Shown piece after piece: positions 265 to 64,000 of a stretch of 64,000 nt of DNA. A program made the position numbers and the translations under genes. Numbering within the stretch: the first letter of the stretch is position 1; each line of letters begins with the position of its first letter. Source of the stretch: Bilabrum cf. latius (Eukaryota); assembly GCA_965178125.1 (NCBI GenBank), contig OZ237756.1:248001-312000 (forward strand), in the 5' to 3' direction. The notes under the pieces were generated by a model. That model did not search any database. It had not been told where the DNA came from and worked only from the letters and a program-made list of their open reading frames with translations.

Positions 265-3200
265 TCACCTATCTCGAAACCGAACCGATACATCTACACT
301 GAGTGGTACATCCTCGAGACGCTCATTCTTAGAGTGTACATGCACATACAGAGAGGGCTCTTGCACCGTGACCCCGACGTGCCATTGGAGCGGCTCCTCT
401 GACTCGGTCTCACCATCCATGGGTTGGCACGATTGTGCCCGGGACTGCCCACCAGCGCCGTGCGGGTCCAAAAACACCATGACGTTGATCGTTTCCGCCG
501 CAGCCTCAGTGCCGCAGCGCGGTACACGTCTAGCAAGCACCGCAAATCGGCCCATGGTATTCGAATACAGCGTCCACGGACAGCCATCCAGGACATCGAT
601 CAGCACGTCGGTTTCCTCGATCTCTGCTTCAGCGTCGGCCGAATCAGAGCCGAAACACATGCCAGAAAGCGTGAATAATGCAAATGAGAGCCCTGGATCT
701 GCGGGTGCATCGCATTTGACTCGACTTGGGAATGCCTCATTCCGGGAGGTATCTTCTGCCGGCACGCTCTCTCTGTCGACAGAGCCAGCAGCACCACCGG
801 CCACGCCACCCGCACTAGCCCCAGCAGACTTGACACCAGTTCTAGCCCCAGCACCATCGTCGCCAGTACTAGCCTTCTCACCCTTGCTGCCTGCCCTTGC
901 CTCCGCACCGTCGCTACTAGCTCTAGTAGCTGCAGCGGCTTTAGCTTCATCCTCACGATCACGCCTGATGCCAGAGATATCTGCATCGATGCGAAGCAGC
1001 GAATCAAATGCAGGCTCACCGCCGGGCTCTGCGTGAATAACCAGCCTAGTCATTGTGCTACAACTCGCATCTGTACAAATAGTTTCGCGTAGCTCATCTT
1101 TCAGCTGGTAAGGGCCACCGCCGGCAGCCTGATGTATCGCAACGTGCACACCGGGGAATCGGCTCGTTGATTGACACTCGCTGCCTTCTGGTTCAATTTT
1201 TTTGAAGCAGCCACACCGGTACGTAAGCAGCACAGGGTCACACGCATCCTCACTGGGGTCGCATAGGGCTGGAAGCAGATCCGCACGCGGTACTTTCCAC
1301 GATTCAAGGTCGGTCGAGGCCATGTCCCTCATCACCAATCTCTAGTCCTCCCGACCTGCCATAGTATCTGCGAGCTGTGCCTCCAGCCATCCCTCACCAA
1401 CACCAAAAGGGGCGGACGCTGCTATCGCCAGCTCCACATCCTTGTTGTTGGCTTGCAGCAGATGGAAACCCTTGGTCACGTCGACGATCTGCAGCGTACT
1501 GGCCATGGTGATCAGCGATCTGGTCACACGAGGCGCCGAAAATGAAGTACCCCGCGTGGTTTCACGTCCCTAGACGAGTGTCTCAAAATCAACTTTGTTG
1601 ATTCCCTCACCCTAGGCGAATACATCGACAGCACGGCCGTAGTGAGAAAACCCGGACATGCGCACAAAAGGCTCTGCTGCTCGGCCAGCATGGGATGCAG
1701 CATATTGATCAGAAGCATCCGGCACTGGGACAGCGTGGGATCCCACGCAAATCACACCCTTGGCATTGCAAGGGTAGGAGTCGGCGGCATTCATGTGATT
1801 GTTGCCAGCTGCGGCCACAAGAAGGAAGCCCAGGTTGTGCAGCACATCGGAAAAGTGATCCAGCTCCTCTGAGATCCTGATCATAGTCTCCGCTCTGATG
1901 GGAGGCCTCTTGGTTCCGACCGCCTGCTTTCTTCCGTCCCAGTTCGTAATGGCCATATTCACCACCCCTAGGACGGTCCCATCACGAAAAGAGGCGCCCA
2001 TGGATTGTCGGATCGTCAGCTGCACATCCTGAGCCATGTGCACTATCGCAGCCAGTCCCCAGCCAGCGAATGATGCGCGCTGCTGCGGCTTGGGAGCTGC
2101 ACCATCTGCTCCACCCTCAGCATGATCTGAAGAAAGCGGGATACTCCCGGAGTCGGGGCGTCCTGCCTTGATCGTTGAGGGTAGGTCAACGAGCTGGCGC
2201 GCCTCGTCACTCGGCAAACCACCATAATTCTTGCCCGGTTTATCCCATGCCGCACCAATGACTCGCACTGGCACGATGATCGACCGCATCCCCGGCCCGC
2301 CACATGCCTCCTTTGCGACCGTGGTGCCATGCCAGTCCTTATTATTAGTAGGCAAGGACGCGTCCTCTGCATGCCCATCAGGATTCAGCATGGACACCCC
2401 TGTTGACACCCTGCTCGTTGGCGAGTCCTTCGAATGCCCGCCAGTGGCCTGAAACAAAGCCTTCTCGACCCAGTCGAATGCACCTTCGGACTGAAACCCA
2501 GAGTAGCGACGGTGCACACCAGAATCTAGGAAGAAAACGACCTGGTGCCGATCGGTCCTCTCCACGGGAAGGCCAGCCATGTCAACGTTGTCACCGCCAG
2601 CAGCTTCTTGTGCCGCTTCTGGACCACCGGCCCCAGAAGCAGCACCCCCAGCGCCCCCAATGCTGGCAGAAGCAGCTCCCCCCGCGCGTTCACTTCCTTC
2701 TGCAGGTGCATGCGCTGCATCACCATCGCCACCACCCTCCTCGCCGCTACCCCCTGCATGGCCATCTGCAGCTGGGGGCTCGCCAACACCGTGCAGAAGC
2801 GGGCCCTGCCGGCTGCCAGCCCCTGACGATGCCTCCAGGTGAAGCAGGCTGGAGTTGGTCGACGGGATGAGCTGCCCGTGGGCTCTTGTCACGAAGGGCA
2901 TCGATGGGTGATGCGCGGCACCCCCAAACTACTGACTGCCCCTCAGGTTGGGTAGATCGCCAGCCAGCTGCACGGCCGGGTCCTCGTAGTATCCGGAGTC
3001 GCCGATGGCACCGGTTGCAACCAGCGCTTGAACCACCTCATCAGTCGTGCATGCAGACATGCCGATCACAGCGGGCTGAGGAATCAGGACTTCATCATTT
3101 GCGCATTTCTCGCCAAGCGCCGTAAGCGAAGCCATAAGATGATCCACCGTATGGTCATCCGAAGAGTGCGGCGATGATGTTCCCGGCTCGGAGGCAAGAC

Positions 3201-4250
3201 CCCCAAGCTCCGTGAGAAGCGCCTGGCTGAAGGAAGGAGGGAGGCCGTGGGGAGTGTTCTCGCTCGGCCGGTACCCGCCAATGCTCAGGTGGTACTGGAA
3301 TGGCATCTCGACACCCGGGAGACTCGCCAGATGCAGGCCCATGGACACGGCAGCCGCTCGCTGGGCCTCTGCTGCCACGGCCATGCCGATCCCAACCGTC
3401 AGTGGAGTCCCGCCGCCGGATGTGCGGCCCTCGATGAACGCATCGATGCCTGCCTGCACCTGGCATGCAGACTCGATCGCAGCCCGGACCTCTTTCTCCT
3501 TCCCCCGGGCCAGCTTGCCAGCCGCCTTGACGACGCACCCCTGCACCCCGCTGCTGGCTGGGCTCGAGGAGGAGGAGGAGGAGGAGGAGGAGGAGGGGTC
3601 CTCTGGCCTGGCGGCCTCGCTGAAGCGGACCTGACTAGCCCCGGATTCCGGTGGCCCCTTGAGACTCGTTTCTCGCTTCTGCGCATCGAAAGCGTCAATT
3701 GTATCCGCCTGAAGCGTGTCTGTAGTAGGTTCCTCCGGCGATGGCTTCACCCGGGCCTCCTTGATGTCCTCTGCAAGCTGGCGAGAGGCTGCGGCGAGCT
3801 CCTCGGCGACCATCTTCGGATCTGCGAGCATAGCAGATGATATCAGCTCCCCTGCCTTGTCCCACTCAAATGCATTCACATGAAAGATCATGTGCTTGCA
3901 CTGGTGGCCCGGACTAGCGTCTCTCTCAGGCTCAGGATCGGCCCCACCGGTGGAGCCAGCGGACCCTCCGGTCGATTCAGGCGGTGGGTCGTTCGGTTCT
4001 GCGGAGGGGACACCACGGAGAACAGACAGCAGATGCTGGGGAAATGTATCAGCAGAAACAACAATATGCGGGAAGGTGATGGCAGTTTGCGATATTGCTG
4101 CCGTTCTGCCTCACCTCTGGCTCGCATAACCGCTTGGTTTGCGCCCGTCTTTCGGTACACTCTCGAGCTGCCTCCCTTTAAAGCACCCGATTTGGCAATG
4201 GTAGAGCCCATGCATATAGCCATGATGCAAGCGGCTGCAACCGTGCGCAT
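265..4250 (-). CDS. Secreted subtilisin-like serine protease (peptidase S8), read with TAG=Gln; probable intron 4114-3999
   Basis: ORFs 2929-3891, 1612-2901, 1342-1527 and 265-1338 share a frame and are separated only by TAG (2929, 1612, 1570, 1342). Catalytic motifs are in order: FFLDSG (Asp), HGTTVA (His), AAAGN (oxyanion Asn), GTSFSAP (Ser, which lies after two TAGs). A signal-peptide-like MRTVAAACIMAICMG starts at 4250 and joins in phase via GTGAGG...CCGCAG. The TGA at 265 could instead be a splice donor. Confidence 0.8.
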
Positions 4251-6452: not shown

Positions 6453-6599
6453 CACTTCGGAACACCCAGTCGCCCCTTCCCCCATCCCGCCTGTGCAGAT
6501 TCAGCCCATCGGTCCGAAGCATCCACCCTAACCCAGGGCTCACGTGAGAGGAAGAACCCACGCCTTGAACTCCCACGGTGCCACTCCCCTGGCTTACAC

Positions 6600-8117: not shown

Positions 8118-10672
8118 TCACCCCTCCCCCGCAGTCCCCAACCCCCCACGATCATCGCCACCTGCATTACCATCACTCCCCTGCTGCCCAGTCGCCTCAC
8201 CGTCTTCCTTTGCTTCTGCACCCGTCCTTCCATCCGCCTCTGCCTCCGCCTGCTTGGCAAGATGCACGGCTAGCGACGCACTCGCCGCCTGCTCCCCCTC
8301 GATCCTCCTCCTCTCCTCCTCGCTCAGCCCTCCCGACTGCTTCTCCTCCTCGGTCAGCTCGCCCACATGCTCCCCGCCAGCACCATCTTGTTCTTCACCA
8401 TCCTCCCCCTGCTGGTGCTGTTGTTCCCTGGGGGCCTGGGGGGGCACATGCGGCTAACCCCCGCCCGGCTAGTCACCACCCCCTGAGCTGCCGTCAGGCT
8501 GCTGCTCCGCCTCTGCTTCGCGAAGGTTCGCCATGCTCTGGCTGTGGCCCTCCCGCCCCCCGGCGGTTACCTGCCTCTTGAGCATACCTGGGGGACCACC
8601 ACTCTCCGATGGGGAGTCGCCGCCCCCGCCCAGCACCGGGGGACCATCACTCTCCGCCCCCTCCACCCCTCGCTGAAAGCCCCCAGTGGCGTCCTCTCCC
8701 GGAGAGGGGCTCGTCTCCAGCGGAACCGGCGCCGCGCTTCCAGAGGTGCCAGGCCTTTGCTCCCCCTCCTCCACGGAACCCTTGGAGCCGATATCCCCCT
8801 CCCCCTCCCCCTGCCCCTCCCCGCCACCCCTCCTCGGGGTCAGCATGGACATCTGCTGCGCCTCGCGGACTTCCTGAGAGCCAGGAAGCGGCAGGCCAAG
8901 GCCGGCAGTTGCGGAACCGGAGGATTGCGCGGCGCCACGACCGGACTGGTGGCTCGTTGTGGGACGGCCACTCTCCGGAACGTACGGCCTTGATTGCGCG
9001 GCGCCGCTTGGGGGCAGTCCTGCGGAACCTCCCATGTCGGTGACCTCGTGCCTCCCTCGATACCCCACCCCAACGCCTCTCCCGCTCAGCCCTAGACCTG
9101 CTCCTGCCCCGGCTCGCCTGCCCCCCACATGCCCATCGTCGAACTCGTCGTCCTCATACCCATCCTCTTCATCCTCATCGCCGTCGCCGTCGCCGTACCC
9201 ACCCCCGGCACCCATCGGGACGTAGCGCCCCTCCGGGTCCGCGTACCCGGGGGCTGGCCTGCGCCCACTCGTCACACCCCTCCCATCACTCGTCACACCG
9301 CCACTACCCCCCTACTCCCTCCTCCGCCTGTGTCTCTCCTCCTGCTCCTGCTCCGCCTCCTGCTCCAGCTCCTTCTTCAGAGTCCTCATGTACTTGGGGA
9401 TGGGCTTGGCCTTGAATCCACCACCCTTTCCTCCGCTACCGCCATTCTTGCCCTTGCCCCTCCCTCCTCCCAGCCCCGATCGCTCCCTCGCCAGCTGCCG
9501 GCTGCTCTTCCGGTTTCTCTCGATGTTCCGCAAGGCCTGGGCCTGCGACTGCCGCAGTGCACTGCAGATGGGGTGCTCCTTCCCTAGGTACACGGTCGCA
9601 ACCTCGACCCCCCTCGAGTAGGCCTTCAGACTGTCCTCGAACCTCCTGAGGAACTCGCACTCCACCCCCGTGTTGTGATAGGCGATGGCCAGTGCAGCCA
9701 CGCGGTCGGGCCTCTAGGCAGCGGGAGCAGCGCCCGACATGCCCCTGTCTCCCTCAAACAGCTCTGCCTGCAGTAGCTCCAGAGCCGCCTGGGCGTGCGT
9801 GAGTGCTTCCTCGTGTCTCTTGAGCTGAGACAATACGGCGCACAGGTTGAGGTGGGTGTCGGAGGGTTGCTGCACCTCGGTGAGGCGGGCCTCCAGGCGG
9901 AGAGCGCGCTGCAGGAATCGGAGGGCCGTGTGCAGCTTGTTCTGGCGGCGGTAGTAGCACGCCAGGTTGTTGTAGGTGACCGCGCGCAGGGAGGAATCTC
10001 GCTCGGTGAGTATTTCCGCTTTCTTCAGCAGCTCTATGACCATGGGAAAGTCTTCCACTTGCAGATACGACATGGCCAGCAGGTTGCAGAGCTCGGCTAG
10101 GCCCCGGCAGTAGGACCAGACCTGCGTGGGAACGCTGGGAAGAGGGTTTAAATACCAGAGAGTTGGAGTGGTGTAGATGCGAGATGGGCCTTTATTTTGC
10201 GCACACGAGGACACCCGATGATGATCGACTGGGGTTCACCTCTTCAGAATCTGCACCAAACAGATGCTATCGCAGCACCAAGGCTCGTTCCATGGCTTCC
10301 AATGCTTCACGATACTTGCCCTGCGCAACAATTAGCGGCAGGAAAGCAACTTAATGTAAGGGAGCAGTCGAGTCTTGACACGACCTTGCAGTTCTGCCAG
10401 CGACCCCAACTTACATCCTTCTTCAACCTTTCGGCGATGTCATCGAGTCTTTGCAGCGATATAAGCTCTGCTCTATGCTTGGCAGCCTGTGGGGCGCGAT
10501 TGAATCGAGCGACTAGAACTCAGATGAAGCGGCACACCGTTTCTAGGGTGAGCAAGTTTTCTGGTATGTACGCTTTCCCGTCTGTGCAGACCGCGAATAC
10601 ACCCCTAGCAACGTTAATCAATCTCACTGCTTCTGCCTAAGCCGCTGTTGCTACCACAGCAGGGCCAGCCAT
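8118..10672 (-). CDS. TPR-repeat protein with long low-complexity C-terminus; exons 10672-10628, 10486-10415, 10320-10240, 10121-8118
   Basis: Phase-0 GT-AG introns join MAGPAVV.../AAKHRAEL.../GKYREALEAMERALVLR[TAG]HLFG.../VWSYCRGLAELCNLLAMSYLQ. TPR motifs AVTYNNLACYYRR, DTHLNLCAVLSQL and AIAYHNTGVE are present. In-frame TAGs at 10637, 10267, 9714, 9312, 8469, 8454; ends TGA. Confidence 0.8.
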
Positions 10673-13844: not shown

Positions 13845-16800
13845 TCAGCCCATGCCCATAGACGCCAAGGACCTGCATACCTGTTCGGCTACCCTGGATG
13901 CGGGACCACGACCCGAGTCCCGGAGCCCCCTAAGGGGCACAAGCACACCTGCATCTACCACAGACTGCTTCAGGCCATCCTATCCAGCAGCGATATTCCG
14001 AAGCGCCCAGGCCGCCTGCTCTGCCTCCTCGCCCTTGCCCGACCCAAGCAGAGCCACCAGGCCGCCCAACGCACCTGCATCCACCACGGACTGCTTCAGA
14101 CCATCCGATCCAGCTGCGATATTTCGAAGCGACCTAGCCGCTTGCTCTGCTTCTTGACCTTTGCTCGATCCAAGCAGAGCCACCAGACCGCCCAACGCAC
14201 CTGCATCCACCACGGACTGCTTCAGGCCATCTGATCCAGCTGCAATATTCACAAGCGCCCTAGCCGCTTGCTCTGCTTCCTGGCCCTTGCCCGATCCAAG
14301 CAGAGCCACCAGACCGCCCAACGCACCTGCATCCACCACGGACTGCCGCAGGCCATCCGACCCAGCTGCGATATTCACAAGCGCCCTAGCCGCCATCTCT
14401 GCCTCCTGACTTGTGCCCGATCCAAGCAGAGCCACCAGACCAACCAACGCACCTGCATCCACCACGGACTGCTTCAGGCCATCTGATCCAGCTGCAATAT
14501 TCACAAGCGCCCTAGCCGCTTGCTCTGCCTCCTCGCTCTTGCCCGATCCAAGCAGAGCCATCAGACCGCCCAACGCACCTGCACCCACCAAGAACTGCCT
14601 CAGGCCATCCTATCCAGCTGCGATATTCCGAAGTGCCCAGGCCGCCATCTCTGCTTCCTGGCCCTTGCCCGATCCAAGCAGAGCCACCAGACCGCCCAAC
14701 GCTCCTGCACCCACCACGGACTGCCTCAGGTCATCCGATCCAGCTGCGATACTCCGAAGCGCCCTAGCCGCTTGCTCTGCTTCCTGACCCTTGCCCGATC
14801 CAAGCAGAGCCACCAGACCGCCCAACGCACCTGCATCCACCACGGACTGCCTCCGGCCATCCGATCCAGCTGCGATATTTACCAGCGCCATACTCGCCAT
14901 CTCTGCTTCCTGGCCCTTACCCGATCCAAGCAGAGCCACCAGGCCGCCCAACGCACCTGCATCCACCACGGACTGACACAGGCCATCCGATCCAGCTGCG
15001 ATATTCCGAAGTGCCCTAGTCGCTTGCTCTGCTTCCTGGCCCTTGTCCGATCCAAGCAGAGCCACCAGACTGCCCAACGCACCTGCATCCACAACGGCCT
15101 GCCTCCGGCAATCCGATCCAGCTGCGATATTCGCCAGCGCCATATTCGCCATCTCTGCTTCCTGACCCTTGTCTGATCCAAGCAGAGCCACCAGGCCGCC
15201 CAACGCACCTTCATACACCACGGATTGCCTCAGGCCATCTGATCCAACTGTGATGTTCACAAGCGCCCTAGTCGCTTGCTCTGCTTCTTGACCTTTGCTC
15301 GATCCAAGCAGAGCCACAAGACCAACTAACGCACCTGCATCCACCACGGACTGCCTCCGGCCATCCGATCCAGCTGCGATATTCACAAGCGCCCTAGCCG
15401 CTTGCTCTGCTTCCTGACCTTTGCCCGATCCAAGCAGAGCCGCCAGACCGCCCAACGCACCTGCATCCACCACGGACTGTCTCCGGCCATCCGATCCAGC
15501 TGCAATATTCTGAAGCGCCCAGGCCGCCTGCTCTGCTTCCTAACCTTTGCCCGATCCAAGCAGATCTACAAGGCCGCCCAACGCACCTGCATCCACCACG
15601 GCCTGCCTCAGGCCATCCGACCCAGCTGCGATATTCGCAAGCGCAATAGCCGCTTGCTCTGCCTCCTGGCCCTTGCCCGATCCAAGCAGAGCCACCAGAC
15701 CAACCAACGCACCTGCATCCACCACGGACTGACAAAGGCCATCCGATCCAGTTGCGATATTCCGAAGCACCCAGGCCGCTTGCTCTGCTTCCTGACCTTT
15801 GTCCGATCCAAGCAGAGCCACAAGACCAACCAACGCACCTGCATCCACCACGGACTGCCTCAGGTCATCCGACCCAGCTGCGATACTCCGAAGCGCCCAG
15901 GCCGCTTGCTCTGCTTCCTGGCCCTTGCCTGAACCAAGCAGAGCCACCAGACCGCCCAACGCACCTGCATCCACCACGGACTGCCTCCGGCCATCCGATC
16001 CAGCTGCGATATTCCGAAGTGCCCAGGCCGCCATCTCTGCTTCCTGGCCCTTGCCCGATCCAAGCAGAGCCACCAGACCGCCCAACGCACCTGCATCCAC
16101 CACGGACTGACGCAGGACATCGTATCCAGCTGCGATACTCCGAAGCGCCCTAGCCGCCATCTCTGCTTCCTGGCCCTTGTCTGAACCAAGCAGAGCCACA
16201 AGACCAACCAACGCACCTGCATCCACGACGGACTGCCTCCGGCCATCCGATCCAGCTGCAATATTTGCCAGCACCCAGCCCCCGTGCTCTGCTTCCTGGC
16301 CCTTTTCCGATCCAAGCAGAGCCACCAGACCAACCAACGCACCTGCATCCACCACGGACTGACACAGGCCATCCGATCCAGCTGCAATATTCCGAAGCGC
16401 CCTAGCCGCCATCTCGGCCTCCCGGCCCTTGCCCGATCCAAGCAGAGCCACCAGACCGCCCAACGCTCCTGCGACGATGAAAAGTGCCCGAAGCCTGTCG
16501 TTGTCATAACACAGTTGCCAAATTACGAACGCAGCTATTGCTGCTTCCACCTTCTCATTGGATCGAAGCCGACTCGCGAGTTTGGCTACTTCAGTTGGAC
16601 TAGACAGCACATGCTAAGCCAAGGCATCAACTGCATCGATCATCGACTGTTTTGTACTCGCTTGAAAATCGGCCATCGAGTCAATCCCTGATTCTATCCT
16701 CAGCTGCCACAGCACGCGATACAGCCCATCCCAGTCCCCCCTCCTCAGCAGCCCGTCCACAATCTCCCGCACCCTGGCAACTGCAGCCGCGCAATCCTCT

Positions 16801-47313: not shown

Positions 47314-49293
47314 TCACGGCTTGGACCCTGCCGCGAACCGGATGTGCCTAGATCTACCCTCCCCCTCTCCCTCTCCGTCAGCCGATGCACTGTCGTGCGG
47401 TGCACCCGGCCCAGCCTCCGCGCCTCCTTTCCCCTCACCGCCCTCCCCGTCCCCCTCCTCCTTCTTCTTCTTGGTTCTCCTCGCCAGAGCCGCCTTGCCC
47501 ACAAGCAGGAATGTGTCCCGGTTGGGCCCAGCCACCACCTGCCGGCACCGCACTGCTCTTGGCAGAGAGACCTTCACTCCCCGACCAGCCCCGATGAGCG
47601 CCCTCGCCATACCCTCCGCATCGGATCGAACCCCCGCATCGCCCACAGTGCCCCTCCCGGCCATCGTGCCCTTGCCGCTCCCGGCACCGGGTTTGCCGGC
47701 CGCAGAGTCCCACAGGCGCTCGGCCGGCCGAAGCTTCCGGAACGAACCCGAAGCGAACCTTCGCCTGATCTCCAGGTCCTGTTCCTCGGGAAGCTTCCCT
47801 CCGCTGTGCCAGTCCCCCCGGCGAGCCGTCCCCGCCGAGTACAGCTTCGCGTGCCAGGGAACATCGGAGCGGAAGGACGTCGCGGCTGCAGACAGCACCT
47901 CTGCCGTGAACGAGGGTCTTGACTTGCCACCGTCCGGCTCCAGGCTCGCAGGAGTCGACTGGGGAGGAGCAGCGGGAGAGGGGCCGCCCTCCTCTGCCGC
48001 CTCCCGTTCTTGCTCCGATCCCTGTTGATCCGATCCCGGCACCCCCCGCACCTGCAGCGCCTCAAGCCCGGGGGGGGCACTCCTAGAGGGCAAGAAAACC
48101 GCCGAGGGGCCCGGCCTCCCGTGCGCCGCCACCAGCGAGAACCGGCCTAGTGGAGGCTCTGCCCCGTGACCGCTGCCGGCGAGCGCGGTGAACAGCCGGG
48201 AGGCCGCGGAGGTCGGCTTTGCGGAACCGGAAAGCGCGGCGCCGGCATCCGAGGCCAGAGCGCCCGCATGCGCGGGGGCCTGGAGGTCGCACCTGACGAT
48301 TGCGAAGCCGACGGGCGGCGGGGGTGCCCTGCCCGAGGTCGCGGGGGGGGCGCCGTAGTGCGTCTTGATGTCGGTTGCAACCACCTCGTCGAGTGCCACA
48401 GATGGGACGGGGCTGAGGCCACTGCTCTCCCCCTTCTCCTCATTCTTCTCCTCTCCTCCACCGGTGCCGGCGCCGCGCAGCAGCTCCTCCACGCTGCGGA
48501 ACACCCACGGGCCCACGCCGCCGTCCGCGATGCTGCCCGGCCCGGCATCGGCATCCCCCGTGAGTTTCGATTCCGGATCGATCCTCGGCTTGCTCCTGGG
48601 CGGCTGCCCGTCCTCGTCCTTGCCCTTCTTGGTCTGGTCGTCTTCTTCATCCTCCGAGGTGTTCCCGGCAGAGGAATCGCTGCTCCTGGCGTCTTTGGGG
48701 AGCACCGTGGTGGGGAAGCAATCTTTGGCCGCTTCCAGGAGAGCAGAGGCCCCCAGTGGCAATTGCATGGTGGCTGTGCTGATGCTGCCACTGCTGCTGC
48801 TGCTGCCTGCGCCCGTGCTCGGTGTTGGTGCATCTTTGGATGACTCTGAAGAGGCGACTGCCCCGGGTTCGGTGCCGTTTCCTGAACCTTGCTGGCATCC
48901 TCCAGCGGAAATAATGGGACCCGCACCACTGCATGCAAATATGCTGCACTGGGCGGGAGGCGATTCGCTGCTTTGGGAACCTGGCACTGGAGGAGAGGCC
49001 TGCTATGGCGCACTAGGCTGGCCGGTCGTCAGTGGCACCAGGACGTAGATGGCAGAGGGTGGGCGCAGGTCTGGTGTTAGAGCAGATGGTCTAAGATACA
49101 CTTCTGCCCGCACTCCGGTGAGCTGCCATCCCATGGCCGGCGTGCCAGCCAGTTGATCGGCAGGCGCCCCTGGCGAGGACTTGGTATTAAAGGGAACCGC
49201 GAGAAGGTCGACGCCGCGAAGTTGCAGTGTGAAGCATAGTCGAAGCTTCTACTGCTTTGAACCAGGTATGGCACACAGCTCCAGTAGGTACAT
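47314..49293 (-). CDS. Hypothetical protein (~660 aa; start uncertain)
   Basis: The 557-aa ORF extends upstream in frame through TAGs at 49003 and ~49249 to ATG 49293; ends TGA; no domain recognised. Confidence 0.55.
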
Positions 49294-49546
49294 GTGAGGG
49301 CGTCTAGCTGTACTGCAACTGGTGCGGGATATAGAATCACTCCGTCTGCTTCGTCAAACGCGGGTCCAGTCTGGCTCGTAACGGGTTCACAAACACAGAA
49401 TTGTCGATCCAGCTTAGAACTGCAGCCGTCAACTTGGAGGACTTGAGTGAATTGGGTTTGCTTTCTCCCCTGGATTACGATCGTCACGCTGCGCCGTACA
49501 ACCTGATTGCGAACCTCACTCCTCGGGCTGCAAAAAGCAAGCCCTA

Positions 49547-51436
49547 ATGTCATATTTCATGACTTTTGGGCTGTTCGTTCTGCCTCACCTCCTTCGTGCC
49601 CATGGTACGGGGTCGCTTCCGGACCCGCTCCAGTTGCTGAAGGAGATGCAGTCCGCCATCGATAGCAAGCAGGCGTCCTTCGACATCCCCTGCGGCACGT
49701 ACCTGTTCAATGAAGCCAAGACCAACGTGGCTCTTTTCAATGCGAGCAACTTTCACCTCCGGGGGAATGGAGCAGTGTTCGTGATGGGCGGAGACCTCCG
49801 GTCTCCCGGCGTAACGCTCTCCCAGTGGACGAACAGTTCCATCAGCGACCTCTCCATAGATTTTGAGCCCGCCGCATACTCTCAGTGCGAAATAGTCTCA
49901 ATCCAAAACGCGACGACGAGCCGCCCGTCGATGGACGTCCGCCCACTCGCTGGATTCAACCCTCCCGACCCACGGCTGCACCCCGAGTACGGTGCGAGGG
50001 TCGTCAAGGCCATTTATTGGAACGGAACGGATCCATCGTACCGCATGCTGCCGTACCAGGCGGGCGTGAACAATTGGCTGGACGTGCAGCCGCTGTCCGT
50101 GCCGTGCAGCGGGACCTGCAGCCAAAGCGACCACTTTTCCTCCCGACCCCGCACAAGTACCGGGCAGGCAAATGGTGCACAGCTAGACCAGCTGTATCGC
50201 GTTTTCCTCGCGCGGCGGATCCAGGGCAATCCCCGGCCTGGAATTGATCTGGTCACGCTGGGCCCGCGCACAGGGGGGGCGATTTCGACGGTCAAGAGCA
50301 CGAACGTCACGCACTCAGGCATTCAGGTGCACGGCAGTGGCAACATGGCGGTGGCGGCGTTTGGTGGTGGGGGAGGGCACACGTACTAGCAGGTGGTCGT
50401 GGGGCGATACCCGGGCGGGGGCCTGGCTGCTTCACGGTGCGACTGGGAGGCCTAGGCTCGGCGGAGAGGATTGGACGGCGCGGAAGCAGCAGCGGGGAGA
50501 TGGGCATCACCCGGTGCAATCTTGCACGAAGGAGGAGTCCCGCCCCGGCTGTTGGCCTCGAACGCGGACGCTTTCCACGCCAACAACCTCCGCGTGGGTC
50601 CCACGGTGATGGACTCGACCTTCTCCTTCGCGGGCGATGACCTGATGAACCTCCACGACGAACTTTCGCTGTTGTTGCGACCACGCTCGCCGGCTGGGGC
50701 AGGCTGGGGGCCCGGGAAAGCCGTTTTGGTGGACGGGTCAACGGCGGGGAACCCAAGTGCGGTGCTGCAGCACCTGCAGCGGGGCTCGGTTCTCAAGTTT
50801 TACGACCCGCGGAACTTCAGTTACAGAGGGAACGCCACTGTGGGATGCATCACCCGGTGCGCGAACGTTCCTTCCGAGTGCACAGCCGATATACTGTCCA
50901 TGGCGGAGCAGGCCAGCCGGGTGATGGACTCGCCTCCTCTAGACCTGCACGTGCGAAACATCACGGCCAACGCGCAGAACACGTGGGTGGTCACTTTCGG
51001 TGACGACGATGCTCCCAACCTGTTTCCGCAGCAGGAAAACGCTCCCGGGGTCGCAGGGGGGTCCCTTCCTTCGACTGCGGTAAACTACTCGCTAGTGCAG
51101 TATGACGGGTACTCTACGGCGGGCGCTGTTGTGCGGAACGTGAGTTTCCATGACTCCTTCGACAGGTGCCTCATGCTTAAGTCAATCGGAGCTACCGTGA
51201 GCGCGTCGAGGTTTGCACGGTGCCGCGGGGTGCACATCGAGCCCGACCAGTACTTCCTCGAGGGCTCCGTTGACCTGCGGGACATCACGGTGGAGGAGAG
51301 CCGGTTCCAGGACTGCGCCGTACTGCGGAATGCGACCATCACAGTCGCGGAATTTGCGCGGAACGTGACGCTGCGGGGCAATGACATTCAGCCGGGGCCG
51401 GCGCCTGGAAGCACGGCTACGGAGGGAGGGGACTGA
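49547..51436 (+). CDS. Secreted right-handed beta-helix (pectin-lyase fold) protein, GH110 alpha-galactosidase-like
   Basis: ORFs 49547-50389 and 50471-51436 are in one frame joined at TAG 50387. Signal-like N-terminus; IPCGTYLF, LRGNGAVFV, SNADAFH, FAGDDLMNLH, VVRNVSFHD; ends TGA. Confidence 0.7.
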
Positions 51437-51807: not shown

Positions 51808-54800
51808 TCACGTCGGTTCGCTGCCAGGAGGTGACTCGCTGCCCGTCTCAAAGGGCTTGGCGACTCCAAGAGCCTTCTGCGTTTGCTTGGAGGCTTCCGT
51901 ACCATTGGAATCCGCCATGGTCTTGGCACGGTCAAGGTCTACTGGTTGAGATCCCCGATCTGCATCTCGGACGCTCTGCCCGCCGATCGTGTTGTTCTGT
52001 AGAACTTCACCCTTTGAGCCGCGGCTAGACCACATGGGAGACTGTCCCTGCAGGGCATGCATGCCTGCCGGCCCGGGCTTAGCGTTGCCAGGAGCGGTCG
52101 ACACCTTGCCGCTTCCCTGACTGGAGCTCTTTGGTCCCTGTACTGGGCCAGAAGCTTGTCGGCGGTGCTCCATGGCCTCCTCCTCAGTGTCCACCAGTCC
52201 GCTTCGTCCACACAGCCACTCCACCTTTGGGCCAAGCACCTTCTCAAACATAGTGAAAGCAGATGTAAACCCGCCAAGGATACCCACAGTGAGACCCACG
52301 ATCGATGAGGCCACCTGAGCCAAGGTGTAGGCTGGCGTGATGTTTGTCGTGGCAAACACTCCCGCTTGCGACATCTGAATGCTGAGCCTCGTCACTGTGG
52401 TGGCTGGATCGATGGCATCGACAGATCGAGTCGTTGTCGCCCCGCTGCGCAGGTCTTGCACCCTGAACCCCTCCACGCTCCTGGCGCTTCCAGCCCTCGT
52501 GTCATCCAGCACGTGACCGACGAACGCCACCTGCTCGGATCGAGCATCCAGCATCTCTTGCAGGTGCACCGTGGCGTTCGAAGTGAGTGGGTCAGCTGAT
52601 GGAGACACTGCAGTGCCGCTCACACTGGACCAGCGGCCTCCCGCGTCTTGCGTGGCCAGCCGCCAGCCGATCGCCTGCACAGCCCAATGGGTGTCGATGT
52701 CAAGCACGGTGACGGCAGTCAGGCCGCAGTCGTCACACGTGGCACGAAGCCAGCACAGAGGCCGATCGAGCTGCTGACCATCCGATGGTAGTTCCTGCAC
52801 GGTGGCAGTGGCTGCCAGTTGCAGCATCGAATGCGCTGGGGCATCCCTGGGTAGTTGCTCTGCAGACAGCGACGCGCGGCCAGAGCTCACAGTGAGAAGG
52901 TACGACTCACTGCAGGGTGCCAGGGAGGTCGGAGACAGCACGGCATCCAGCACCACGTTACTCTTCGCCGATGCAGCTCGGACAGCACCGGAGGCCCCCG
53001 CCGTGGCCACCTGCAGCCCATCCGTGGTGATGGAGTTGCGATAGGCGAAATCGAGTACAAGGGTAGTGGATGATGTCAGTGCCACCAGCACGGCCATGAC
53101 GGTGAACCATCCACCCGTTGCCGTGGTGATCCTCCTGACTGCGGCATACTCGACGGGCTTGTGCGCCTGCGCCATGCTGTCGATCATGCGCAGTCCCGTA
53201 TGCATCGTTGGCCGCACTGATGGTACTAGCAGCAGGAGCAGTAGCACGCAGAGCACGCACGTCGTCACAATCCATGCGATAATGTCGACATCGGATCCAC
53301 CCTCATCATCGGTGCCTCCATCGCTGGCCGGATCCGGTTCATCTGCAGGTGCCTCCTCTGCCCCGCTGGACTAGTCGTCTTGCATCGGCTCTTGCAGGCG
53401 CCGTGCAGCCAACCCGCCTGCTCTGAGCGCTGCCACGACCTTGGGGTCAACAACCGATTGTGGATCCACCCGCAATCGCCTGCTGGATCCACCCGAGCTG
53501 TAGCTGCTAGTCGCAGCACTAGCAAATGCATCTTCATCATTCCCAGGCAAGGGGACACCTGCCAAGGATTCCTGGATCACAGCCAGAGCAGGCACAGGCT
53601 CAGGCACACCGGGCAGGCACATGGTGCCAGGATCACTGCATGTTGGCGGATGATCAACGCACTCGTTGGTGCTTGAATCGAGAATGGCATCTCCTGGGCA
53701 CCCCGAGCACAATGCCGAGCCACTGTCACTGCGCAGGCCGGCCCCGCATCGAATGCAGCTGGATGTGAGGGCAGCACCAGGACTTGGCATGTACGTGCCT
53801 GACGGACACTCAGAGCATGCAAATGACCCGATCTTGTAGACAGACGCGGTGCCCGGCTTGCATGTCTCGCAGGACTGCACGTTGCCGCCGGCAGAAGAAG
53901 TGCCCGGCAAGCATGGCTCGCAATTCTGCCCTGCCATCCCACCAGGGCAAGAGACCACCACTGCAATGCAGTCGAGAGCAGTAGACGTTCCAGTCCCGAC
54001 TGTTGTGGTCCCATCGGGGCACTGCAGGCACGTTGATGACGAAGCGGCCAGCACGGCTTCGCTGTAGGTGCCCTTGGGACAATCGCTCTTCTGCAAGCCA
54101 TCCTCGCAGTAGGTACCTGCAGGGCACTTCACGCACATGATTTCGGTCGTTGCACTGCCGAGTATCTCCACGGGCGCTTTGTAGGTGCCGGGATTGCACT
54201 GCGCTCCTACGCTGTCCGAGATATTGACTCCCTGTAGCTTGAACAGGTTGGCAAATGCCTAGGCGTGCGAAGTCTCGATCGGGTTGTTCTACAAATTCAG
54301 ATGCTCCATGGCATTGTTGGCAGCAAAGGACAGCTGGGCCAGGTACTTGAAGCCGTTACCACTCAAGTCTACGGTTCGAACATTAACAAGAGGCGAGAGA
54401 GCGCCGTCTACGAGGTGGAACGACTGCTCACCAGAGGACCCCGCAACGCGGAGAGAAGAAAGTGCAGGAAGCCCAGCGAACGTCGCTTCGGTCCACGCAG
54501 ACCGACGCAGGTCCAAGCCTTGCAGATCCAACGACCGCAGTGTGCTCGCAAATGCACAGTCACGGAATCCATCGAGAGCCAGGTCTTGTGTTTTGCCAAA
54601 TGTGCGCTAGGCCCCCGGGGCCTCGATAGACAGCGAAGCCAGAAGATCGAGACCATCAAAGAATCCACAAGTCCCGTTCTCGACAGTAAAATCAGCTCCA
54701 AGGGTCAATTGTATCTCGGTCAGATCTCCAAGGTGCTGGAGCAGGCCAGTTGGCCCTGATTGCAGCATCGGAGCAACAAGCTCAAGACGGCCAGGACTGC

Positions 54801-56325
54801 CGTGTGCTCCAACAAATGCGTCTTGGTGCAGGTGCTGCAGCCCGGGTGCCTAGATACGTACTCGCTAGGACGACATCGAGCCTTCGAAGAGACCCGCCCC
54901 TCCATCCTACATGCTCGATGGCAGCGCGATGGACGTCAGGCCCGTCAGCCCACGCAGCGCACCAGCCTCAAGACTCGACACCTGCGTCATGGACAGGTCC
55001 AGCGACTGCAGGCCGGATGGACCCGATCCGTCCTGGCCCGATGTGAACGCGTCTGGCTCGATGGTGCTGATACTCGGGGGCAGACTGATCTCTACGAGTG
55101 TTCCATTGTCAGTTCCCAGACTGTGCTGCGTGATTGCAGTCAGGTCGGTGCACCTTGAAAGGTCGATGGAACGCAGCCTCGGGGCACCGCTAGCAAAATT
55201 CGCAGGCAGCTCATTAAGCCCAGCCGGCAGGACGATAGTGCTTAGTTGCTCCCAACCAGCTAGGACTGGCACCTCCGGTGCAGCAGGCCAGGGCGCGTCG
55301 ATCTAAGCGCCCGACAAGTCTAGGGTAGTGACATCAACATCTGGCAAGATTGTATCCAACCTTACAGATGGTGGGCGGCACATAACGGAAGCACTCCACG
55401 CCTGTACGCTCGATGGAGGGCTAGACTAGGACGAAGAGTCAGACCCAAAGCAGTGCATCTTGCCAGTGCCTGCCTCGATCCCGCACGTGTGCTCATCGCC
55501 CGCAGACACGGCGACCCACGCCTGCACGCTCGATGGAGGGCTAGACTAGGACTAAGAGTCAGACCCGAAGCAGTGCATCTTGCCAGTGCCTGCCTCGATG
55601 CCACACGTGTGCTATCCACCGGCAGATACAGCGGCCCACGCCTGCACGCTTGATGGAGGGCTAGACTTTTGGGGGTGCTAGTCATCCCCGAAGCAGTGCA
55701 TCTTGCGTGTGCCTGCTTCGATCCCACACGTATGATATGGGCCCGCAGACACGGCAGACCATGCCTGTACGCTCGATGGAGGGCTAGACTAGGACTACAT
55801 ATTGGACCCAAAGCAGTGCATATTACCGGTACCTGCCTCGATGCCGCACGTGTGTGAATAGCCCGCCGACACGGCAGACCACTCCTACACGCTCGATGGA
55901 GGACTGGACTAAACGAAGGACCCGAAACAGTGCATCTTGCCGGTGCCTGCCTCGATCCCGCACGTGTGCGATCCGCCCGCAGACACGGCAGACCATGCCT
56001 GCACGCTCGATGGAGGGCTAGACTAGGACGAAGAGTCGTCTCCGAAGCAGTGCAGCTTCCTAGTGTCAGCCTCGATGCCGCACGTGTGTGAATAGCCCGC
56101 AGACACTGCAGACCATGCCAGCACGCTCGATGGAGGGCTAGACTAGGACCAAGTGTCTCCGCCGAAGCAGTGCATATTACCGGTGCCTGCCTCGATGCCA
56201 CACGTGTGCGAGGTTCCTGCCATTTCAAGCAAGGTACGTTCGTGGTAATCCTTGCACCAGTCGTTTCCCATTGAGCGGTCAACAGCAAGAAGTGCTGCAA
56301 CCAGAAATGGAGTATGCAATCGCAT
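51808..56325 (-). CDS. Membrane receptor-like protein copy A: signal peptide, ~7 RCC1/BLIP-II-like repeats, LRRs, Cys-rich (TNFR/GCC-like) repeats, multi-TM C-terminal region (~1505 aa)
   Basis: One frame from ATG 56325 to TGA 51808 broken only by TAGs. Repeats WSAVSAGxxHTCGIEAGTGKMHCFG; LRR LQSLDLSMTQVSSL, VDLSGNGF, LNL[TAG]NNPIE; CxxCPxGTY repeats; hydrophobic helices. Confidence 0.82.
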
Positions 56326-56937
56326 TGGTTTTAAGGGAAGACACTGCTACGGCACAAGTATGTAAATAGGAGTGAATTGTGTACGGAGAGAGACCGACTC
56401 TCTTGCAGTCGTGATACACTGGCAGTTGGGTGATATCCCGGTGGGTGATATCCCGGTGGGTGATACTTCCCCAAGGCAACCCAGTGGGTAATAGTATTCC
56501 GGCCCGCCGGGAAGGGTCAGCTGTTCGTTCAGCGAATATTTGTGATTGCACGCACTTACTCAATCCCCCATTGGATCAATGCAAATGCGATCGTGTTCCC
56601 ACTAACTTGCTCTTTCCAGGCAGCAAAGCGGTTTTTGAAAAAGCCCATTATTATTTTTAGAAAGACATAAGTGGCTTCGTTCTGGGGGCAGAAGCAGTCT
56701 GAATCGGGCTCGCACGGTGCCGCAAGCGGCAAGTCCCGACATTATCAACAGGACCAAGCCCCACCACAGCCACATGGGACAGTGCTGATCACGCCCAGCA
56801 TGCATGATGCGTCGTAAATCATCCAAGGAACGGGCCTCACTCGCGGAGTCGCTTCAGAGTTGTCGCTCGAATCAATTGGCTCCACGAGAGGTGAAGCACC
56901 TGCTCGCGGTGAAAAGCCGGTCGACGACTGCAGCGGC

Positions 56938-59509: not shown

Positions 59510-60449
59510 ACTCTCGTGTTGATGCATTGGCTCCCGGGGCATCGAGATGCCCAGATTAGTTACGAGGCGTAGGTATAAGGTTGTTGGCCTGCTGTTTGTG
59601 CTCGACCTGCCGCCTCCTTTCTCCATTCTGTGAGAGACTGAACTCAATAATAGTTTATTTTTCGTTTGAAAGTAAGGCTGCGAGGCATCAGGTGCATAGC
59701 ATGTGAGTGCCCTAAACGGTTGTGCTCAATGACCGGGCTGGACTACTTGTGCGGAGCCCGCTGGTCGGCAAGTCGCTTGGCAGCCCGCCTAGAAGTTCTT
59801 AATGTACAGTCAAGTCAATGCGATGGTCTGTTTGATGTCCATCTCGTGGGTCTTGACGGGCAGCAGGGACAGTTGGCACGTTGACAACGACTGGGGACCT
59901 CATTGGCCTGCAATCGGGCATCTTGGCGCGCCTTCTGAGCATAAAACTGTCGGATGGACCCAGTGTGCGTTTCAGTGTAGGAGCATTGCGAGGTTGTGTT
60001 CGCGTAGCAAGAGTCTTGCTGCAGCTGTGGTACACTTCACTTGGTGGCTTCAACTTTAGCTACAACGTCCGTTGTGCGCCTCGTGTACTAGGTATCAGTT
60101 ACCTTGTGCCGTAGATTTATATCTTTTTGCGCTAGTTATTGCGCGTGCTCCCACAAGGGTGCCAGATTCCAGGGCCACTCTCCACGGTCCGATCAAACCG
60201 GAACTCTCCGCGCGCTCCGACTCCCAATTTGAAACACACTGGGTTGCCTGAGGGTGAATCCGAATATTACCCAACGTGATATCACCCACTAGGATTTCAA
60301 AGTCCACCCACCAGGAAATCACCCATCGGCGTGGACACAAGTACTAATAGGCTATAGTGCCGCCGAACGCTGGAGAGTCTGTCTCTCTCTAAACGAAATT
60401 CACTCCTATTTACATACTTGTGCCGTGTCAATTTCTTTCCTCTAAACAA

Positions 60450-63400
60450 ATGCGATTGCATACTCCATTTCTGGTTGCAGCACTTCTTGCTGTTGACCGC
60501 TCAATGGGGAGCGACTGGTGCAAGGATAACTATGAGCTTACCTCGCTTGAAATGGCAGGAAGAGAGCACACGTGTGGGATCGAAGCCGGCACCGGCAAGA
60601 TGCACTGCTTCGGGTCTGACACTTACTCCAAGTCCAGCCCTCCATCGAGCGTGTAGGAGTGGTCCGCCGTGTCTGCTGGCAATGAACACACGTGTGGGAT
60701 CGAGGCAGGCACCAGCAAGATGCACTGCTTCGGGTACAATGAGTACTCCTAGTCCAGCCCTCCATCGAGCGTGCAGGCGTGGGCCGCCGTGTCTGCGGGC
60801 GGCTAGCACACGTGCGGGATCGAGGCAGGCACGCGCAAGATGCACTGCTTTGGGTCCAATTTGTACTCCTAGTCTACCCCTCCATCGAGCGTGCAGGCAT
60901 GGTCTGCCGTATCTGCGGGCCAATCACACACGTGCGGGATCGAGGCAGGCACACGCAAGATACACTGCTTTGGGTCCAATATGTAGTCCATGTCTACCCC
61001 TCCATCGAGCGTACAGAAGTGGTCAACCGTGTCTGCAGGCGGGTCACACACGTGTGGGATCGAGGCAGGCACGCGCAAGATGCACTGCTTCGGGTCCAAT
61101 TTGTCGTCCGAGTCCAGCCCTCCATCGAGCGTGCAGGCGTGGGCTGCCGTGTCTGTGGGCAACGGGTACACGTGCGGGATCGAGGCAGGCGCCGGCAAGA
61201 TTCACTGCTTCGGGTCCATGTATTTTTCATTGTCCCTCTTTCCATCGAACGTGGCGTGGTCCGCCGTATCTGCGGGTGGGAGGCACAGGTGCGGGATTAA
61301 GGCCGGTACCGGCGAGATGCTCTGCATCGGGGGCGATATGTACTCCGTGATACCTCCATCGAGTGTGCAGGCGTGGAGTGCTTCCGTTACTTGTCGCCCA
61401 CCGTCCGTAAGGTTCGACACAATCTTGCTAGATGATTCTGTTACAACACTGGACTTGGCGGACGCTCAAATCGACGCACCCTGGCCTGCTGTGCCGGAGG
61501 TGCCAGTCCTAGCTGGTTGGGAGCAACTAAGCACTATCGTCCTGCCAGCTGGGCTTAAGGAGCTGCCTGCGAATTTTGCTAGCGGTGCCCCGAGGCTGCG
61601 TTCCATCGACCTTTCAAGGTGCACCGACCTGACTGCAATCCCGCAGTACAGTCTGGGAACTGACAATGGAACACTCACCGGGATCATTCTGCCCTCGAGT
61701 ATCAGCACCATCGAGCCAGACGCGTTCACATCGGGCCAGGACAGATCGGGCCCATCCGGCCTGCAGTCGCTGGACCTGTCCATGACGCAGGTGTCGAGTC
61801 TTGAGGCTGGTGCACTGCGCGGACTAACGGGCCTGACGTCCATCTTGCTGCCATCGAGCATGGAAGATGGAGGGGCGGGTCTCTTCGAAGGCTCGATGTC
61901 GTCCTAGCGAGTACGCATCTAGGCACCCGGGCTGCAGCACCTGCACCAGGACGCATTTCTCGGAGCACACGGCAGTCCTGGTCGTCTTGAGCTTGTTGCT
62001 CCGATGCTGCAATCAGGGCCAACTGGGCTGTTCCAGCACCTTGGAGATCTGACCGAGATACAACTGACCCTTGGAGCTGATTTTGCTGTCGAGAACGGGA
62101 CTTGCGGATTCTTTGATGGTCTCGATCTCCTCGCTTCGCTGTCTATCGAGGCCCCAGGCGCCTACCGCATCTTTGGCAAAACCCAAGACCTGGCTCTCGA
62201 TGGATTCCGTGACTGTGCATTTGCAAGCACACTGCGGTCGTTGGATCTGCAAGGCCTGGATCTGCGTCGGTCTGCATGGACCGAAGCAACGTTCGCTGGG
62301 TTTTCTGAACTTGCTGCTCTCCGCGTTGTGGGATCCTCTGGTGATCAATCGTTTGATCTTGTTGACGGTGCTCTCTCGCCTCTTGTTAATGTGCAAACCG
62401 TAGACTTGAGTGGCAATGGTTTTACATATCTGGCCCAGCTGTCCTTTGCTGCCAACGATGCCATGGAGCATCTGAATTTGTAGAACAACCCGATCGAGAC
62501 TTCGCACGCCCAGGCATTTGCCAACCTGTTCAAGCTACAGGGAGTCAATATCTCCGAGAGTGTGGGAGCGCAGTGCAATCCCGGCACCTACAAAGCACCG
62601 GTGGAGATACTCGGCAGTGCAACGACCGAAATCATGTGCGTGAAGTGCCCTGCAGGTACCTACTGCGAGGATGGCTTGCGGATGAGCGATTGTCCCAAAG
62701 GCACCTACAGCGAAGCCGTGCTGGCCGCTTCGTCATCAACGTGCCTGCAGTGCCCCGATGGGACCACAACAGTCGGGACTGGAACGTCTACTGCGCTTGA
62801 CTGCATTGCAGTGGTGGTCTCTTGCCCTGGTGGGATGGCAGGGCAGAACTGCGAGCCATGCTTGCCGGGCACGTCTTCTCCAGGCGGTAACGTGCAGTCC
62901 TGCGAGACATGCAAGCCAGGGACTGCCTCTGTCTCCAAGCTTGGATCAATTGCGTGCTCTGAGTGTCCGTCAGGCACGTACATGCCAAGTCTTGGTGCTG
63001 CCCTCACATCCAGCTGCATTCGATGCGGGGCCGGCCTGCGCAGTGACAGTGGCTCGGCATTGTGCTCGGGGTGCCCAGGAGATGCCATTCTCGATTCAAG
63101 CACCAACGAGTGCGTTAATCATCCGCCAACATGCAGCGATCCTGGCACCATGTGCCTGCCCGGTGTGCCTGAGCCTGTGCCTGCTCTGGCTGTGATCCAG
63201 GAATCCTTGGCAGGTGTCCCCTTGCCCGGGAATGATGAAGATGCATTCGCCAGTGCTACCACCAGCAGCTACAGCTCGGGTGGATCCAGCAGGCGACTGA
63301 GAATGAATCCACAATCGGTTGTTGACCCCAAGGTCGTGGCAGCGCTCAGAGCGGGTGGGTTGGCTGCACGGCGCCTGCAAGAGCCGATGCAGAACGACTA

Positions 63401-64000
63401 GTCCAGTGGGGCAGAGGAGGCACCTGCAGATGAACCGGAGCCGGCCAGCGATGGAGGCACCGATGATGAGGATGGATCCGATGTCGACATTATCGCATGG
63501 ATTGTGACGACGTGCGTGCTCTGCGTGCTACTGCTCCTGTTGCTGGTTCCTGCAGCTCGACCAACGATGCATACGGGACTGCGCATGATCGACAGCATGG
63601 CGCAGGCGCACAAGCCCGTCGAGTATGCCGCTGTCAGGAGGATCACCACGGCAATGGGTGGATGGTTCACCGTCATGGCCGTGCTGGTGGCACTGACATC
63701 GTCCACTACCCTTGTACTCGATTTCGCCTATCGCAACTCCATCACCACGGATGGGCTGCAGGTGGCCACGGCGGGGGCCTCCGGTGCTGTCCGAGCTGCA
63801 TCGGCGAGAAGCAATGTGGTGCTGGATGCCGTGCTGTCTCCGACCTCCCTGGTGGCCTGCAGTGAGTCGTACCTTCTCACCGTGAGCTCTGGCCGCGCGT
63901 CGCTGTCTGCAGAGCAACTGCCAAGGGATGCCCCAGCGCATTCGATGCTGCAGCTGGCAGCCACTGCCACCGTGCAGGAACTACCATCGGATGGTCAGGA
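60450..64000 (+). CDS. Membrane receptor-like RCC1-LRR-Cys-rich protein copy B (3'-truncated by window edge)
   Basis: Paralogue of 51808-56325; starts MRLHTPFLVAALLAV; one frame with TAGs at 60654, 60750, 60804, 60870, 60984, 61905, ~61920, 62481, 63399. Confidence 0.82.

Follow-up and report, generated by a model that had tools for sequence, protein, structure and literature searches.

Probable use of UAG as a glutamine codon in a GC-rich 64-kb stretch of eukaryotic nuclear DNA

The DNA described here, called the window below, is a stretch of 64,000 nucleotides (contig OZ237756.1, positions 248,001 to 312,000) in which long protein-coding frames are broken by TAG and by no other stop triplet. 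It is best read as GC-rich nuclear DNA of a eukaryote in which UAG serves as an ordinary minor glutamine codon, UGA as the main stop and UAA as a rare stop, the arrangement of NCBI translation table 15; judged from the sequence, this reading has a probability of roughly 0.8. The assignment of UAG to glutamine, already proposed in an earlier note on this DNA, appears well supported by an invariant glutamine of the MutS fold, a glutamine in a PCNA-binding motif, a glutamine in the closest orthologue, and the co-variation of TAG with CAA. Changes of this kind to the genetic code are rare but have precedents, and it is a tentative suggestion that the lineage will prove new for this code.

Under the standard stops, the longest stop-to-stop open reading frame (ORF) of the window encodes 580 amino acids. 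Reading through TAG yields 12 ORFs of 661-1804 amino acids, and reading through TAA leaves the set of ORFs almost unchanged. Because reading through TGA also lengthens the ORFs (longest 1037 amino acids), and because TGA is the commonest stop triplet of the window (804 TGA, 461 TAG and 197 TAA, the last being the rarest), ORF length alone is no proof of a sense reading; the proof lies in the order of the encoded domains. The earlier note had described 12 chains of same-frame ORFs, broken only at TAG at more than 60 sites and free of frameshifts. This stands for 11 genes with 72 TAGs, in none of which a frameshift is found. The twelfth model (36949..39711, plus strand, 5 TAGs) is doubtful: it matches no family, its GC content at the three codon positions (0.62/0.59/0.58) carries no coding signal, and it overlaps ORFs of the opposite strand. 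This model is left out of the 11-gene counts. The 11 credible genes comprise 13,284 codons with 72 TAG, no TAA and no TGA in frame, against 156 TAG, 83 TAA and 461 TGA in the two off-frames of the same DNA. The zeros for TAA and TGA are a consequence of the ORF definition, and the informative quantity is the length of the ORFs: at the off-frame density of 544 TAA or TGA per 26,568 codons, the chance of meeting neither in 1,804 codons is, by our own arithmetic, about e^-37.

The longest of these frames is a mismatch-repair gene of the MSH3 type (18434..23848, minus strand), a single stop-to-stop ORF of 1804 codons ending in TGA, in which MutS domains I, II, III and V follow one another in order and in one frame across 12 in-frame TAGs. 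Its best solved relative is human MSH3 (E 6e-86), and the alignment reaches residue 1787, beyond the last TAG. As the earlier note had claimed, essential motifs are located downstream of TAGs: the P-loop of MSH3 lies downstream of 10 of them; the APE motif of a PINK1-like kinase, which is joined to some 20 ARM repeats of 42 amino acids each (13845..18308, minus strand; 9 TAGs, TGA end; Pfam Arm and Pkinase), lies downstream of three; and so does the catalytic-serine motif GTSFSAP of a divergent subtilase-like gene (265..4110, minus strand; 4 TAGs, TGA end; no Pfam match). A TLDc (MEAK7-like) gene (39982..43020, minus strand; Pfam TLD) contains 2 TAGs, and the end of its TLDc domain, EVWAVG, is found downstream of TAG-882, which itself falls within an unaligned insert.

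Since comparisons internal to the window give mixed answers (see below), and since UAG is read as serine in Scotinosphaera, the identity of the residue requires an outside test. Residues 195-470 of MSH3 were searched against 1.84 billion representative proteins, and 154 homologues were aligned. TAG-293 (22970..22972, minus strand; VGLVR-TAG-SETAA) occupies the position of the invariant glutamine of MutS domain I, with Q in 153 of 153 filled rows (the 154th row, from the truncated fragment P0126, has a gap), and it aligns with the Q of VGVVKQTETAA in human MSH3. TAG-41 (23726..23728, minus strand) is the first position of TAG-SSLSSFF, which, by the definition applied, we take to be an N-terminal PCNA-binding (PIP, PCNA-interacting protein) motif. 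The pattern x..[LIVM]..[FY][FY] is present within the first 80 amino acids in 69 of 86 full-length MSH-type matches; 64 of these open it with Q, and S and L open it once each.

The best match in the database is the protein P0126, a 249-amino-acid fragment that is 89% identical to the MSH3 of the window over 249 amino acids. At TAG-222 (23183..23185, minus strand) it reads QQVAAVQAQWPG where the window has QQVAAV-TAG-AQWPG, which places a glutamine opposite the TAG; in distant homologues this column holds K 121, R 17, Q 10, L 2 and W 2, and no Ser. The gene call of P0126 starts immediately past the site of TAG-41 and breaks off immediately ahead of that of TAG-293, limits that would match gene calling under the standard code if the relative also has TAG at 41 and 293. 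A further protein search for shorter fragments of relatives leaves P0126 as the sole close one. The column at MSH3 residue 1366 is variable (E 25, K 22, R 21, Q 10, others) and compatible with glutamine. A simple log-likelihood summed over the MSH3 and repeat columns amounts to -19.1 for Q, -37.5 for S, -39.4 for K and -39.5 for L, which favours Q by 18 units. Two other comparisons were set aside. The alignment of the kinase with PINK1, its best PDB match, is too weak for its TAGs to be used; and the TAG-rich x-SSPP column was tried as the 'GQ' that we take to be characteristic of RCC1 repeats and was dropped, as the best solved relatives are plant repeats of the ACR4 type, in which P, N, I and Y stand opposite the TAG columns.

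Codon usage points in the same direction. The glutamine-type codons of the 11 genes amount to 587, made up of 391 CAG, 124 CAA and 72 TAG (about 12%). Across 12 genes, the share of TAG in each gene tracks CAA/(CAA+CAG) (Spearman 0.84, p 0.0006), and it declines with the GC content at third codon positions (GC3; Spearman -0.75). The control gene NOP58 (43774..46292, plus strand, TGA end), which has a high GC3 and the strongest bias, uses CAG 20 times and neither CAA nor TAG. TAG thus behaves as a disfavoured synonymous glutamine codon should.

Two pairs of paralogues and several repeat arrays allow TAG to be compared within the window. Genes A (24605..28966, minus strand, 3 TAGs) and B (31283..35536, minus strand, 5 TAGs) encode membrane-anchored Ser/Pro/Thr-repeat proteins of unknown family with 91% amino acid identity; all three TAGs of A are common to B, and the two found in B alone have AAT and CTG opposite them in A. 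Gene C (51808..56559, minus strand, 20 TAGs; Pfam) combines CRINKLY4/RCC1-like repeats, leucine-rich repeats (LRRs), an ephrin-receptor-like Cys-rich region and a membrane anchor, and is 89% identical in amino acids to its inverted paralogue D (60393..63998, plus strand, 9 TAGs), which extends beyond the window. Seven TAGs are common to C and D and 14 are not. The five shared pairs listed in the earlier note (28709/35279, 27521/34091, 26348/32918, 54289/62481 and 53371/63399) are found as it gave them. Its two exchanges of TAG for a glutamine codon between C and D (54259 TAG for 62511 CAG, and 55303 TAG for 61467 CAA) are likewise correctly placed; as evidence they are weaker than it implied, given how few unshared TAGs behave in this way. 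In the ARM repeats, TAG 15540 stands in column 18, where the other units have CAG 13, CAA 2, GAG 2 and CGG 1, so that the reported contrast with CAG holds in the wider form of CAG or CAA in 15 of 18 other units. The repeat column of TAG 60654 holds CAG 10, CTG 1, GCG 1 and one further TAG, in keeping with the earlier note, although its direct paralogous codon is CTG. Like ARM column 18, the V-x-W repeat column is dominated by CAG and CAA, and at TAG-360 of the kinase a variant contig from a family member gives CAG (17231 A>G; the codon reading is our own).

Several observations weigh against this reading, in part or as a whole. Only 3 of the 16 unshared paralogue TAGs face CAG or CAA; four face Leu codons, one faces TCG (55969/60804), and the other eight face AAT, AAG, ATG, GGG, TTT, GAA, TAC and TGT. 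Two ARM TAGs fall in column 34, a serine column (TCG 13, TCA 3, TAC 1; Ser in 16 of 17), and most contigs of family members carry TCG opposite TAG-411 of the kinase (17077 T>G). In the subtilase-like gene, TAG-833 is placed against the conserved proline of APG by a weak homology to proteinase K and its relatives (E 9e-4). Taken alone, the internal comparisons would not separate glutamine from serine. The non-glutamine partners are one or two base changes away from TAG or CAG and stand at variable or weakly aligned positions. With regard to the other two triplets, the case for UAA as a stop consists of one gene end and the lack of in-frame TAA in 12 genes; and with 12 gene ends to judge by, any gene truly ended by TAG would look extended under the ORF definition used.

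The genes end in TGA in 11 of 12 cases and in TAA in one, and GC3 falls past the TGA stop in most genes. Among the long genes, only the TLDc gene is closed by TAA; beyond this codon GC3 goes from 0.80 down to 0.40, and a TGA is met 14 codons on. If TAA also encoded glutamine, about 23 in-frame TAAs would be expected from the CAA:CAG ratio of 124:391 (our own arithmetic), and none is present. Reading through TAA adds only stretches without coding signal, for example upstream of the PIP box of MSH3. Because TAA and TGA appear to stay stops, the code is, on the basis of 12 genes, most likely of the UAG-only type (table 15) and not of the commoner type in which UAA and UAG change together.

Neither decay nor faulty assembly accounts for the TAGs. 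Decaying genes would also gather TGA, TAA and frameshifts, and none of these is present in the 11 genes, where TAG is the sole in-frame stop triplet. The ratio of non-synonymous to synonymous substitution rates (dN/dS) is 0.28 between genes C and D and 0.59 between A and B, values that mark purifying selection on both pairs. The paralogues have ten TAGs in common, three in A/B and seven in C/D. Contigs of runs from other studies match the MSH3 region 18226-24700 without one differing letter, and the contig pieces listed from these runs span 10 of the 12 MSH3 TAG sites; the four runs compared are contigs, probably of DNA, and one run that spans all 12 sites may be the window's own source. A dead copy of the MSH3 5' end, located upstream of B (ORF 35803-36576, '...KK-TAG-SSLSSFFGGTASIDTSTVLGKA...'), retains the TAG of the PIP box.

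Five other explanations have been weighed. That the genes are pseudogenes, or the TAGs errors of sequencing or assembly, has the mere presence of stop triplets as its sole point in favour and is refuted for practical purposes: TAG alone is found in frame, frameshifts are missing and dN/dS is below 1, the sequence recurs unchanged in contigs of other studies, and TAGs are conserved between paralogues and, to judge from the ends of the P0126 gene call, probably in a relative. A standard code in which the RNA loses the TAGs, either because U-to-C editing turns them into CAG or because tiny introns remove them, is highly improbable. TAG-293 and TAG-41 lie within conserved motifs that are ungapped, which leaves no room for introns at these sites; editing would have to strike every in-frame TAG, 72 or more in number, while sparing terminal TAGs, and TAG use follows codon bias in the manner of CAA. 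We know of no nuclear system with such editing of TAGs. Another residue at UAG (Ser as in Scotinosphaera, Leu as in the rhizarian exLh), or ambiguous decoding, draws on the TCG codons that stand opposite TAG four times (twice in ARM column 34, at kinase 17077 and at 55969/60804) and on the Leu codons opposite TAG in four paralogue comparisons. It is hardly more probable than a change in the RNA, because neither Ser nor Leu appears in the invariant MutS column, the two are found once each among the 69 first positions of the PIP motif, Ser is missing from the residue-222 column, where the close relative has Q, and both lie 18 to 20 log-likelihood units below Q.

A dual role of UAG, as sense codon within genes and stop at some gene ends (as in Condylostoma and Blastocrithidia), or an inefficient readthrough, is very unlikely, if slightly less so than a different residue. 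It could hide among the small number of gene ends noted above; yet all 12 genes run to TGA or TAA, conserved sequence or a coding GC3 signal continues past the last TAG wherever this can be judged, genes with 12 or 20 TAGs require near-complete decoding at each of them, and the base that follows TAG is not strongly biased (T 25, G 18, C 16, A 13). The least improbable alternative, though still unlikely, is that UAA and UAG both encode glutamine (table 6) and that TAA is too rare in GC-rich DNA to show in 64 kb. TAA is indeed the rarest stop triplet of the window, glutamine at both UAA and UAG (UAR) is the commonest variant outside ciliates (PMC11687900, PMC5304391), and the best named matches of MSH3 domain I come from the green lineage. 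This explanation has to accommodate the absence of every one of the roughly 23 predicted TAAs from 13,284 codons that encode complete domain architectures, the fall in GC3 behind the TAA of the TLDc gene, and the ORF piece upstream of MSH3 that is reached across a TAA, has no coding signal and precedes the N-terminal PIP box. The reading of UAG alone as glutamine is therefore preferred.

The mechanism behind a UAG-only change can be sketched from other lineages. A tRNA-Gln with anticodon CUA would decode UAG but not UAA, as suggested by Tetrahymena, hexamitins and Iotanema (PMC5304391). In Tetrahymena, UAG is read by a tRNA-Gln(CUA) that leaves UAA unread, and tRNAs of this kind differ from tRNA-Gln(CUG) by one base (PMC5304391); a single base change would likewise suffice to produce the tRNA proposed here. 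The release factor eRF1 would in addition have lost the recognition of UAG, and in Iotanema the eRF1 residue in contact with the G of UAG is altered (PMC5304391). A plausible route is that GC pressure, together with termination dominated by TGA, made TAG rare as a stop and so open to capture. Scans of the 64-kb window gave 0 tRNA genes and 0 Rfam matches.

The window is cellular, nuclear eukaryotic DNA, with a GC content of 57-62% along its whole length (about 60% overall). It is judged to be cellular, unlike giant-virus DNA, because it contains spliceosomal introns, NOP58 and MSH3. NOP58 is divided into three exons (about 43774-43895, 44070-44740 and 45537-46292) by GT-AG introns of about 174 and 795 nt (about 43896-44069 and 44741-45536), of which the GTGAGT...CAG intron is read directly; the exons were set from Nop58 alignments, the Pfam Nop domain being divided between two ORFs. 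The organism consequently splices, since this gene is interrupted by canonical GT-AG introns. The neighbours of NOP58 are much longer and yet are single exons, and the promoter region of NOP58, about 750 nt long and lower in GC, also serves the TLDc gene, which is transcribed divergently.

Ciliate macronuclear DNA is AT-rich and has very short introns. The window departs from this picture on each count: its GC content is 0.57-0.62, the two introns of NOP58 measure about 174 and 795 nt, and the named matches of NOP58 and MSH3 include no ciliate. It does not look like ciliate or metamonad DNA, and the earlier description of it as non-ciliate-looking is borne out.

Its positive affinities point in different directions. 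MSH3 domain I has its best named matches in streptophytes (Chara 57%, Closterium, Chlorokybus and land plants), and the repeats of C and D match the ectodomains of the plant ACR4 type best in the PDB. NOP58 is 70-85% identical to its counterparts in stramenopiles, plants and holozoans. In a quick maximum-likelihood tree it is placed with Cafeteria and environmental rows, outside plants, holozoans, ochrophytes and oomycetes (SH-aLRT, an approximate likelihood-ratio support value, 98), with poor taxon sampling and no supported sister; the one chlorophyte in the set, Chlamydomonas leiostraca, is 58% identical and far away in the tree. The bicosoecid-like and environmental company of NOP58 and the green-lineage-like MSH3 are tentative single-gene placements. 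Two scans of Joint Genome Institute (JGI) metagenome contigs, with the N-terminal part of MSH3 and with the ARM repeats, returned no relative, and a TAG-free part of another gene met only clusters of mixed taxa in the Protein Atlas.

Among known systems, glutamine at UAG alone is reported for Iotanema, Protocruzia and two phyllopharyngean lineages in PMC11687900 and PMC5304391. The fornicate Iotanema spirale resembles the window in being a non-ciliate with UAG as glutamine and, as is probable for the window, UAA and UGA as stops, an assignment that was also made from conserved glutamine positions (PMC5304391). It differs in being an anaerobic metamonad, known from its transcriptome, whose primary stop is UAA, whereas TGA closes 11 of 12 genes here; its eRF1 carries a T32G change (PMC5304391). 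The 60% GC content of the window, and a NOP58 that is 70-85% identical to others, also do not suggest a fast-evolving metamonad. Protocruzia tuzeti and the two phyllopharyngean lineages, which are ciliates, share with the window the meaning of UAG and, probably, the retention of UAA as a stop (PMC11687900), and are set apart from it by its contiguous GC-rich 64-kb locus, its two GT-AG introns (about 174 and 795 nt) and the lack of a ciliate among its best named matches.

Glutamine at UAR (table 6) is used by Ulvophyceae (Dasycladales, Cladophorales and Trentepohliales), Hexamita, Streblomastix strix and Amoeboaphelidium protococcarum (PMC11687900, PMC2984419). These organisms offer further cases of the capture of stops by glutamine outside the ciliates, and the MSH3 domain I and ACR4-like repeats of the window are loosely of the green lineage; by contrast, the window has no in-frame TAA in 13,284 codons and has one gene ending in TAA, and the one chlorophyte NOP58 among the matches, that of Chlamydomonas leiostraca, is only 58% identical and distant. 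In Scotinosphaera, where UAG is Ser, and in the rhizarian exLh, where it is Leu, the change is confined to UAG, with UAA still acting as a stop (PMC11687900, PMC5304391), which also seems to hold for the window; its conserved columns, by contrast, give glutamine. Giant-virus genomes with TAG as glutamine and TAA and TGA as stops are described in GVMAGs V2 (PMC13524828); the window, being cellular, is unlike them. Literature searches, supplements aside, gave no stramenopile or further new-lineage case of UAG as glutamine, and a case already in print is possible. An independent and undescribed capture of UAG alone by glutamine, in a eukaryote that is GC-rich, evolves slowly, belongs to neither ciliates nor metamonads and has UGA as its main stop, is plausible, if less likely than not.

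The separation of UAG from UAA in nuclear codes is rare, being listed for Iotanema, Protocruzia, two phyllopharyngean lineages, Scotinosphaera, one rhizarian and one ciliate in the papers cited (PMC11687900, PMC5304391). A further case, GC-rich and dominated by UGA, would be an independent data point on the capture of stop codons, and the genome would allow changes in tRNA-Gln(CUA), glutaminyl-tRNA synthetase and eRF1 to be read directly. If the reading is true, the organism might exemplify the type of host used by giant viruses with the same code. Annotation of the genome calls for TAG to be translated as glutamine; gene callers that apply the standard code break up this lineage's genes in public collections of proteins, as is seen from P0126, which is cut beside two TAG positions.

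Besides the genes of unknown or uncertain family, the window encodes NOP58, an MSH3-type protein, a TPR protein, a PINK1-like kinase with ARM repeats, a protein of the TLDc (MEAK7-like) family and two recent pairs of membrane-protein paralogues. The genes not yet described are a TPR-repeat gene with a long low-complexity tail (8118..10235, minus strand; 4 in-frame TAGs, TGA end), a gene of unknown family (47314..49353, minus strand; 2 TAGs, TGA end) and a secreted beta-helix-like gene with a weak Beta_helix match (49451..51436, plus strand; 2 TAGs, TGA end).

The ARM array (13845-16475) consists of about 20 near-identical tandem units of 126 nt (42 amino acids) in frame with the kinase, an architecture without solved counterpart among the matches. 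The PINK1-like kinase domain (17000-17900) belongs to a multi-copy family, with many variant contigs that are 90-99% alike, and the summed contig depth at this domain reaches up to about 30x that of the neighbouring MSH3 in one run (X6).

Gene B is a copy of gene A within a segmental duplication of about 6.5 kb (23849-30400 against 30400-36576). The stalk of both proteins (24605-25400 and 31283-32000) contains a SPSTSPTPSITS repeat that differs in copy number, and A is longer by 36 residues. Genes C and D are inverted, head-to-head paralogues about 3.8 kb apart with a synonymous divergence (dS) of 0.23; their N-terminal repeat region diverges fastest (dS 0.45) and carries most of the TAGs. The seven-fold repeats of C (55360-56262) match the 'crinkly' beta-propeller of ACR4 (7a0j, 7a0k) best among solved structures and are joined, without a kinase, to LRRs and the ephrin-receptor-like Cys-rich region.

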